Source of the DNA: Escherichia coli
GTDB lineage: Bacteria > Pseudomonadota > Gammaproteobacteria > Enterobacterales > Enterobacteriaceae
Direction: 5' to 3' (one strand)
Assembly: GCF_003334385.1 (NCBI RefSeq)
Contig: NZ_QOWN01000109.1
DNA: 1,785 nt
Shown here one piece after another: positions 1,668-1,707 of the stretch. The translations under genes and the position numbers were made by a program. The notes under the pieces were generated by a model. The model worked only from the letters and a program-made list of their open reading frames with translations. It did no database searches and was not told the DNA's origin. Each line of letters starts with the position of its first letter. The first letter of the stretch is position 1.

Positions 1668-1704
1668 AAAAAAAGCCGCCAGCGGCAGGAACGGAAGCTG
1701 GCGG
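1668..1704 (-). terminator. GC-rich hairpin (8-bp stem, 13-nt loop) with an A7 tract on its 5' side; intrinsic-terminator geometry only for minus-strand transcription
   Basis: Seen in sequence: CCGCCAGC (1676-1683) is the exact reverse complement of GCTGGCGG (1697-1704), with 7 of 8 pairs G:C and loop 1684-1696. The A-run at 1668-1674 becomes a U7 tract immediately 3' of the stem on the minus strand. On the + strand the stem is followed by AGGTAATCCC, with no U-tract. No folding energy was computed. Confidence 0.3.
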
Positions 1705-1707
1705 AGG
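1703..1707 (+). promoter_or_regulatory. Shine-Dalgarno (GGAGG) 8 nt upstream of ATG 1716; its first two bases lie in the 3' arm of the hairpin
   Basis: Seen in sequence: GGAGG at 1703-1707, spacer 1708-1715 (TAATCCCA), ATG at 1716-1718. Overlap with stem positions 1703-1704. Confidence 0.4.

Follow-up and report, generated by a model that had tools for sequence, protein, structure and literature searches.

Introduction

Esr41, also named EcOnc14, is an Hfq-dependent sRNA encoded in the island SpLE1 of Escherichia coli O157:H7 Sakai, which crosslinks to Hfq (Tree et al. [quoted passage not shown] So far, it has been described as specific to this O157 island. Other sRNAs are encoded in prophages, in the vicinity of a sialate esterase gene. 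PasA and PasC of EPEC E2348/69, which belong to the 'pathogenicity associated' sRNAs and are known as EcOnc51/52 in EHEC, were detected with RIL-seq and RNA-seq and confirmed on Northern blots (PMC8550237 Table S6), and they occupy a slot between the sialate esterase and holin genes, on the opposite strand (PMC8550237 Table S6; bioRxiv 10.64898/2026.05.13.724894). Matches of the Esr41 covariance model have also been found frequently near another of these RNAs, PasD (preprint 10.64898/2026.05.13.724894). In Stx phages, the anti-sRNAs AsxR and AgvB and the pair STnc100/EcOnc27 are encoded downstream of pR', at the opposite flank of the esterase gene; they too are short, convergent sRNAs of the moron region of the late operon, and each ends in an intrinsic terminator.

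The present analysis concerns a hairpin placed at the end of such an esterase gene in a stretch of 1785 nt of E. coli DNA (the window). Taken alone, this hairpin would be an ordinary terminator, and its interest lies in the predicted sRNA gene behind it.

Genomic context of the hairpin

The esterase gene of the window (Table 1), whose RefSeq product name is 'SASA family carbohydrate esterase', ends with a TAA stop codon at 1660-1662, at 5 nt from the U-tract of the hairpin, and about 120 intergenic bases follow it in the window. The window is 98.8% identical to phage PhiR5_1 and 87.9% identical to the PhiR12 phages, PhiR12_1 included, and in the matching phages the genes follow the order Q, esterase, ORF B78, a small gene and holin S, all of them on the + strand. 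The element studied here lies in the esterase-holin slot and is convergent with the esterase gene, as is also the case for PasA and PasC. The nanS-p gene of Stx phages matches only the first ~720 bases of the window, corresponding to the N-terminal part of the esterase, at ~73%.

Table 1. Features of the window, with positions counted from its first base
Feature	Position	Strand	Sequence or description	Basis
SASA/NanS-p-type carbohydrate esterase gene, 3' part	25..1662	+		ORF, phage annotation
U-tract	1668-1674	-	A7 (+ strand) or U7 (minus strand), separated from the stem by one base	
Stem, 5' arm	1676-1683	+ (as read)	CCGCCAGC	
Loop	1684-1696		13 nt	
Stem, 3' arm	1697-1704	+ (as read)	GCTGGCGG	
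Putative sRNA terminator hairpin	1676..1704	-	8-bp stem (7 G-C and 1 A-U), 13-nt loop	
Same hairpin as minus-strand RNA		-	CCGCCAGC-UUCCGUUCCUGCC-GCUGGCGG	
SD-like motif	1703-1707	+	GGAGG	
Start-like codon	1716-1718	+	ATG	
Mini-ORF (ORF1), behind GGAGG	1716..1760	+	MENVKKRCFRISVF, then stop	
Candidate seed, invariant and single-stranded	1716..1723	-	UUCUCCAU, anti-start/anti-SD like	alignment A2, Esr41
Weak 5' stem-loop	1727..1743	-	GAAAG-CAUC-UUUUC or AAAG...CUUU	alignment, fold
Predicted Esr41-like sRNA	1668..1747	-	about 78-80 nt	homology, model R1, fold
Stretch of the predicted sRNA suited as probe target			CUCCAUUGGGAUUACCUCCGCC	
Putative -10	1759-1754	-	TAAAAA, weak, 4/6 matches; aligns with TATATA of the Esr41 locus	
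-35	1783-1778	-	TTGACA, perfect consensus	sequence

Geometry and folding of the hairpin

Intrinsic terminators are formed by a G+C-rich stem of about 5-12 bp, with a loop that typically has 3-8 nt, and by a U-tract placed directly 3' of the stem. As in canonical Rho-independent terminators, a G+C-rich stem followed by a U-tract would here close a short transcription unit: 7 of the 8 bp in the stem are G-C, and the U-tract is present, on the minus strand only. The element differs from the canonical terminators in its loop, of 13 nt instead of 3-8 nt, and in that the hairpin is predicted to form on the + strand as well, where it has no U-tract and would be read through. Such a long loop is not disqualifying, since the terminators of PasC and of the long form of PasA (the distal one), both of which correspond to 3' ends mapped in vivo, have loops of 14 and 19 nt, respectively. 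The PasC terminator (GCCAGCG, the 14-nt loop, CGCTGGC and U7) abuts the esterase stop codon, like the hairpin described here, and so does the distal PasA terminator. The U7 of the window would mark the 3' end of the transcript and would also provide its Hfq-binding tail.

Reading of the sequence located both arms and the A7 run exactly where the initial annotation had placed them. Its proposal of a terminator geometry valid for leftward transcripts only was also borne out, as there is a U7 on the minus strand and the sequence 3' of the stem on the + strand, AGGTAATCCC, has no T-tract. The same holds for its remark that the 3' arm includes the first two bases of the GGAGG motif (1703-1704), these being the only two of the five SD bases that are in the stem. 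Folding energies and terminator scans of both strands, which it had named as checks on the hairpin, gave a divided answer. The 31-nt core of the hairpin is stable as RNA of either strand, with -17.2 kcal/mol (z -2.7) for the + strand and -15.1 kcal/mol (z -3.0) for the minus strand, but in a context of 56 nt the z-scores are only -1.2 and -0.7, respectively, and with such unexceptional values the folding energy is by itself weak evidence. In the same way, a consensus scan did list a terminator-like site on the minus strand, but through an alternative stem of 5 bp (1688->1676) with the tail CTTTTTTTGC, since the scan accepts loops of 3-8 nt and that of the main stem, with 13 nt, exceeds this limit. 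Over the whole window, the scan reported 2 terminator-like sites, and the expectation from shuffles is 2.0, which means that the scan is not evidence by itself either.

The stem formed by 1676-1683 and 1697-1704 is the sole perfect stem of at least 8 bp with a loop of 3-15 nt in all the 1785 bases. In 1000 mononucleotide shuffles, at least one perfect stem of at least 8 bp was found in 21% of the cases, and a stem flanked by A6 or T6 in terminator geometry in none. The strongest support for a hairpin beyond chance comes from its conservation.

Conservation of the stem, the loop and the candidate seed

The homologues gathered from viral contigs amounted to 48 distinct sequences over a region of 159 nt, and 22 representative RNA regions constitute the alignment A2. 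The pairing of the stem was scored on a model-based realignment of 100 matches, 30 of them distinct, which was preferred because RNAalifold mis-registered the inner stem pairs on the MAFFT alignment, due to a gap in the POCJ13 type. In the 30 distinct homologues, 99.2% of the terminator cells are paired in the model-based alignment, and seven of the eight pairs are retained in nearly all of them, while the loop and the flanks vary. Four pairs show no variation at all, two further ones have a singleton unpaired cell each, and the innermost pair (1683/1697) appears as C-G in 25 sequences, as U.G in 3 and as U-A in 2. The A-U pair of the stem is G.U in Esr41. Compensatory changes are absent from seven of the eight pairs and the support from covariation is minimal; this evidence is thin because the homologues are closely related, though the pattern fits a selected stem, and the invariance may partly reflect the recent spread of these close relatives.

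Over the whole element, little or no variation is seen in the stem arms, UUCUCCAU and the -35, whereas the loop, the 5' hairpin and the promoter spacer are variable. The near-invariance of the arms, the seed and the -35 extends across ~57 distinct sequence types, found in mosaic phages that differ on both sides of the element, and the homologues examined have a run of 6-9 T at the position of the U-tract.

Within the terminator loop (1684-1696, minus strand), the core UCC(A/G)UUCCUG approaches the stem in its degree of conservation, in types that otherwise differ, and termination alone does not give us an explanation for this. Being rich in pyrimidines, with complementarity to AGGAA-like sequences, the core may serve as a second site of pairing.

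Distribution of the element and edge of the conserved region

A BLAST search with the bases 1600-1785 of the window matched 233 phage records, and in 226 of these, mostly from Stx-converting phages and with identities of 80-90%, the match runs from 1668-1669 to the end of the window. At least one copy is present in 947 of the 5,426 complete E. coli genomes, which means a carriage of about 17%, with a median of 2 and a maximum of 7 copies, and in most of the chromosomal copies the similarity likewise begins at 1668-1669. Strain ATCC 25922 has a near-identical copy, at 98%. Upstream of the A-tract, the 3' ends of the esterase genes are unrelated between records. As the edge of the conservation is the A-tract and the esterase ends differ, the boundary coincides with the predicted 3' end of the leftward transcript, and, judging from these alignments, the unit of conservation is the predicted RNA gene and not the esterase. 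The position 1668/1669 is also a sharp mosaic junction.

No annotation of the element was found in the phage and RefSeq records inspected, and our literature search returned no description of an Esr41-like sRNA next to nanS-p. A degenerate pattern made of seed and stem was run on genome contigs, and the 120 matches listed were all chance matches from unrelated and mostly high-G+C organisms; none of these 120 was followed by a T-run.

Homology with Esr41

In a permissive Rfam scan, Esr41 (RF02676) was the best match in the region, on the minus strand and over its full length, with 20.5 bits and an E value of 0.058 for the alignment of model positions 1-74 with 1742->1668 of the window. Two copies from Stx phages gave 28-31 bits (E 0.012-0.057). 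The gathering threshold of Esr41 in Rfam, 102 bits, was not reached, and by the Rfam criterion the element is not a member of the family. Because the scores were far below 102 bits, the homology was tested independently with a covariance model of our own, R1, which was built solely from the homologues of the element, with Esr41 left out. This model recognized the genuine Esr41 (SpLE1, strain Sakai) with 27.9 bits and an E value of 6e-6, and the window (1745->1668) with 107.6 bits, and the global alignment with Esr41, from the -35 through the U-tract, had a z of 12.4 against shuffles. The Rfam alignment, the match of R1 and this z value give statistical support to a homology over the full length, and, by comparison of sequences, the predicted sRNA unit is homologous to Esr41, with its putative promoter included.

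Both RNAs, of 72-80 nt, are preceded by the -35 TTGACA and by spacers that are similar and largely shared; they have in common a 5' stem-loop, a single-stranded U-rich segment with the identical UUCUCCAU, a small GG...CC middle hairpin and a CCGCC(A/G)GC...GCUGGCG terminator with U7, and the layout of the predicted fold is common to the RNA of the window, the Stx-phage RNAs and Esr41. They differ in their location, as Esr41 lies in SpLE1 and the element in lambdoid prophages, where it is found between esterase and holin in the late region; they are ~60% alike over the RNA, with a different sequence in the 5' hairpin, and the terminator loop has 11-13 nt in the element and 8 nt in Esr41. The putative seed UUCUCCAU, which is the antisense of ATGGAGAA on the + strand, is invariant in alignment A2 and predicted to be unpaired. 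The 5' stem-loop is placed like the 5' hairpin of Esr41, and in the predicted folds the variant of the window is weaker than that of Esr41 or that of the PhiR12_3 type, whose copies have a perfect 5' stem of 6 bp (CGAAAG/CUUUCG).

Strain Sakai also carries a copy of the element in its prophage Sp5 (NC_002695.2 about 1272086-1272165, minus strand; 5587-5666 of our locus L011). A further copy lies in Sp15. The Sp5 copy is not among the Hfq-CRAC peaks of Tree et al. 2014 (Table S2), and the supplements of Waters et al., which were searched for data on transcript ends and interactions, gave no match for it. The genuine Esr41 gene (1155-1221 of our locus L012, NC_002695.2 about 1422554-1422620) is itself unannotated in the RefSeq record of Sakai.

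Putative promoter of the sRNA

The -35 TTGACA is invariant, also in 9 extra sequence types obtained in a search without promoter constraint, and aligns with the TTGACA found upstream of Esr41. The putative -10 TAAAAA lacks the T at position 6 and is separated from the -35 by a spacer of 18 nt, with a predicted start near 1747 that would give an RNA of ~80 nt; the 5' end would be located there with an uncertainty of a few bases (1742-1750). The consensus scan accepted no promoter in the window, and the region upstream of Esr41 is similarly imperfect as a promoter. A polymorphism in the length of the A/T-run toggles the spacer between 17 and 18 nt and leaves a TAAAAA in place. This run, T6 on the + strand and A6 on the minus strand (1753-1758), shows length differences of 1-2 bases, and insertions of 3 nt occur in a few variants; its length shifts the frame of the mini-ORF on the + strand, which at one locus leads to an in-frame fusion to the next ORF. 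The Stx phage vB_EcoS_P22 (about 1580-1600 of our locus L006) has lost the usual -10 region through a deletion of 14 bp, with TATTAC now standing at an unchanged spacing.

Open reading frames on the + strand

ORF1, the mini-ORF behind GGAGG, reads MEKK and stop in 41 of 122 loci, and its frame and length vary elsewhere, so there is no conservation at the protein level, and the frame probably arises as a by-product of the antisense seed. In the 933W-type copies GGAGG is replaced by GGTGG, and opposite Esr41 the same GGAGG...ATGGAG image is found, in this case with an ORF of 4 codons (MEKM and stop). The better explanation for these SD-like and start-like motifs is that they mirror, in antisense, an anti-SD/anti-start seed, which is a reason for not annotating a gene on the apparent SD and start codon that follow the esterase.

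A second small frame, ORF2, of 14 codons (MKTVLIVNHNGKKL, then stop), occupies 1761-1785 of the window and continues beyond it (7761-7805 of our locus L001). Its ATG directly follows the stop codon of ORF1, and its TGA overlaps the ATG of ORF B78 as ATGA. The length of ORF2 is constant in the 122 loci, where it overlaps the putative sRNA promoter on the other strand; its variants include non-synonymous changes and one frameshift that leave TTGACA intact.

Proposed function and alternative explanations

We consider it quite probable that the hairpin and the U7 constitute the Rho-independent terminator of an Esr41-like sRNA gene on the minus strand, which likely works also as an Hfq-binding 3' module. 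Transcription would start near 1747, from the perfect -35 and the weak -10, would run leftwards, convergent with the phage late operon, and would stop at the U-tract, 5 nt before the esterase stop codon is reached. The product would be an RNA of ~80 nt with the architecture of Esr41, namely a 5' stem-loop, the U-rich single strand with UUCUCCAU, the middle hairpin and the terminator. By analogy with Esr41, Hfq would assist UUCUCCAU in pairing with target mRNAs, at their ribosome-binding or start regions, and an action in cis is also possible, given the full complementarity of the sRNA to the late mRNA. In this proposal, the anatomy, synteny, homology and conservation are observed, and the transcription, its exact ends, the binding of Hfq and the targets are inferred. 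The initial annotation had seen no minus-strand gene in the window, a statement that has to be corrected, as the predicted, Esr41-homologous sRNA (about 1747->1668) and its putative promoter (1783-1754) are both inside it. Among the roles that it had offered for the hairpin, the insulation of the esterase from leftward transcription fits the geometry, with the sRNA of the window itself as the terminated transcript.

The same locus could in principle be a decayed relic, in other words a descendant of an Esr41-type gene that has lost useful transcription and whose hairpin has no present function. The weak -10 and the absence of promoters that pass the consensus scan are in line with this, as are the lack of an Hfq-CRAC peak for the Sp5 copy and the 5' hairpin, which Esr41 and the PhiR12_3 type have in a stronger form than the window. 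We nevertheless regard this explanation as improbable, because the stem arms, the seed and the -35 remain near-invariant across the ~57 sequence types in mosaic phages, the A/T-run polymorphism preserves TAAAAA at 17-18 nt from the -35, genomes contain up to 7 copies, and Esr41 is expressed from a similarly imperfect promoter (PMC5286369). Another possibility, already raised in the initial annotation as a stabilizer of the esterase mRNA 3' end, is that the hairpin acts on the + strand, where it would protect the processed end of that mRNA or mark a processing site. The hairpin does lie 13 nt past the stop codon and folds slightly better as + RNA (-17.2 kcal/mol), and such a role could coexist with that of terminator. 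However, the homology between phages starts at the A-tract whatever the esterase end, the esterase 3' ends differing up to that point, which shows the hairpin to be inherited with the downstream sRNA module; furthermore, the same hairpin is found in Esr41, which has no esterase gene next to it, and the conserved A-tract has a role only on the minus strand, all of which makes this role highly improbable in our opinion.

Control of the downstream SD had also been suggested, with a stem that would sequester part of GGAGG and in this way tune the small ORF and the following genes coupled to it. The arrangement that invites this proposal is tight: the 3' arm overlaps the GG of GGAGG, the ATG comes 8 nt later, the stop codon of ORF1 adjoins the ATG of ORF2, and the stop codon of ORF2 overlaps the start of B78 (ATGA). 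We find it hardly credible, however, given that the stem holds just 2 of the 5 SD bases, that the motif is GGTGG in the 933W-type copies, that outside the 41 of 122 loci with MEKK and stop the frame and length of ORF1 vary, leaving no coupling to ORF2 there, and that the same SD...ATGGAG image is present opposite Esr41, with an ORF of only 4 codons.

The Esr41-like sRNA gene is thus the reading that we prefer, and a bolder extension of it, rather unlikely as it stands, would be that of a widespread, multicopy prophage sRNA of the Esr41 lineage acting both in trans, on host genes, and in cis, on the late mRNA. If this were true, the seed UUCUCCAU would change the regulation of host genes, for example those for iron uptake and motility that Esr41 targets, and the convergent or antisense transcription would restrain the late mRNA immediately before the lysis cassette, so that the physiology of the lysogen would be linked to the timing of lysis. 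Already under the preferred reading, Esr41 would join a much larger, prophage-borne family, and, if the sRNA is expressed, Stx and other lambdoid prophages would gain one more regulator directed to the translation-initiation regions of the host.

Relationship with known prophage sRNAs near the esterase

The element has a length similar to those of PasA and PasC (79-85 nt), the first of which is reportedly processed from a longer transcript. Model R1 gave 13.6-13.9 bits (E about 0.04) with PasA and PasC, no better than with unrelated terminators of the same loci, and in alignments (z 2.5-3.5) their bodies and seeds were unrelated, or only faintly similar, to those of the element. As the slot is common and no homology was detectable between the bodies, the RNA is of a different type from PasA and PasC, and an Esr41-like RNA would be the third type of sRNA in the esterase-holin slot, beside PasA or PasC. 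The remark on Esr41 matches near PasD in the preprint quoted above probably concerns the present element, which that preprint does not describe.

Other known RNAs were considered as identities of the element and discarded. AsxR and AgvB, like STnc100/EcOnc27, differ from it in being on the other side of the esterase gene and have no sequence or model match in the window; for the two former, RF02703 and RF02702 gave no match there at E <= 10, and in Sp5 each of these two sRNAs occupies a place of its own. HnrS (EcOnc10-12, 66 nt) has different coordinates, about 5 kb downstream of AgvB in Sp9, Sp10 and Sp12. HnrS is described as perfectly complementary to the last 15 nt of mazF, and the element is not known to match the mazF 3' end. 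The presence of PasD2 upstream of the esterase in the matching phages was likewise discarded, as no significant BLAST match was obtained and Rfam finds STnc100 at that place.

This STnc100 (RF02076, 143 bits), a relative of PasD, lies between Q/pR' and the esterase on the + strand (5245-5450 of our locus L001 and 5246-5451 of L002). With STnc100 upstream and the predicted sRNA downstream, the esterase 'moron' appears bracketed by sRNA genes. In the loci of matching phages that have STnc100, AsxR and AgvB are absent, unlike in Sp5. The prophage PP4 of E2348/69, which contains the PasD1 locus, has no esterase gene. In prophages of this same strain (3120-3163 of our locus L009 and 2528-2575 of L010, + strand), there is a hairpin GCCGTCAGTG...ACTGGCGGC followed by TTTTTT, located between PasA or PasC and the holin gene (in PP5, an IS element), which looks like a terminator of the late operon.
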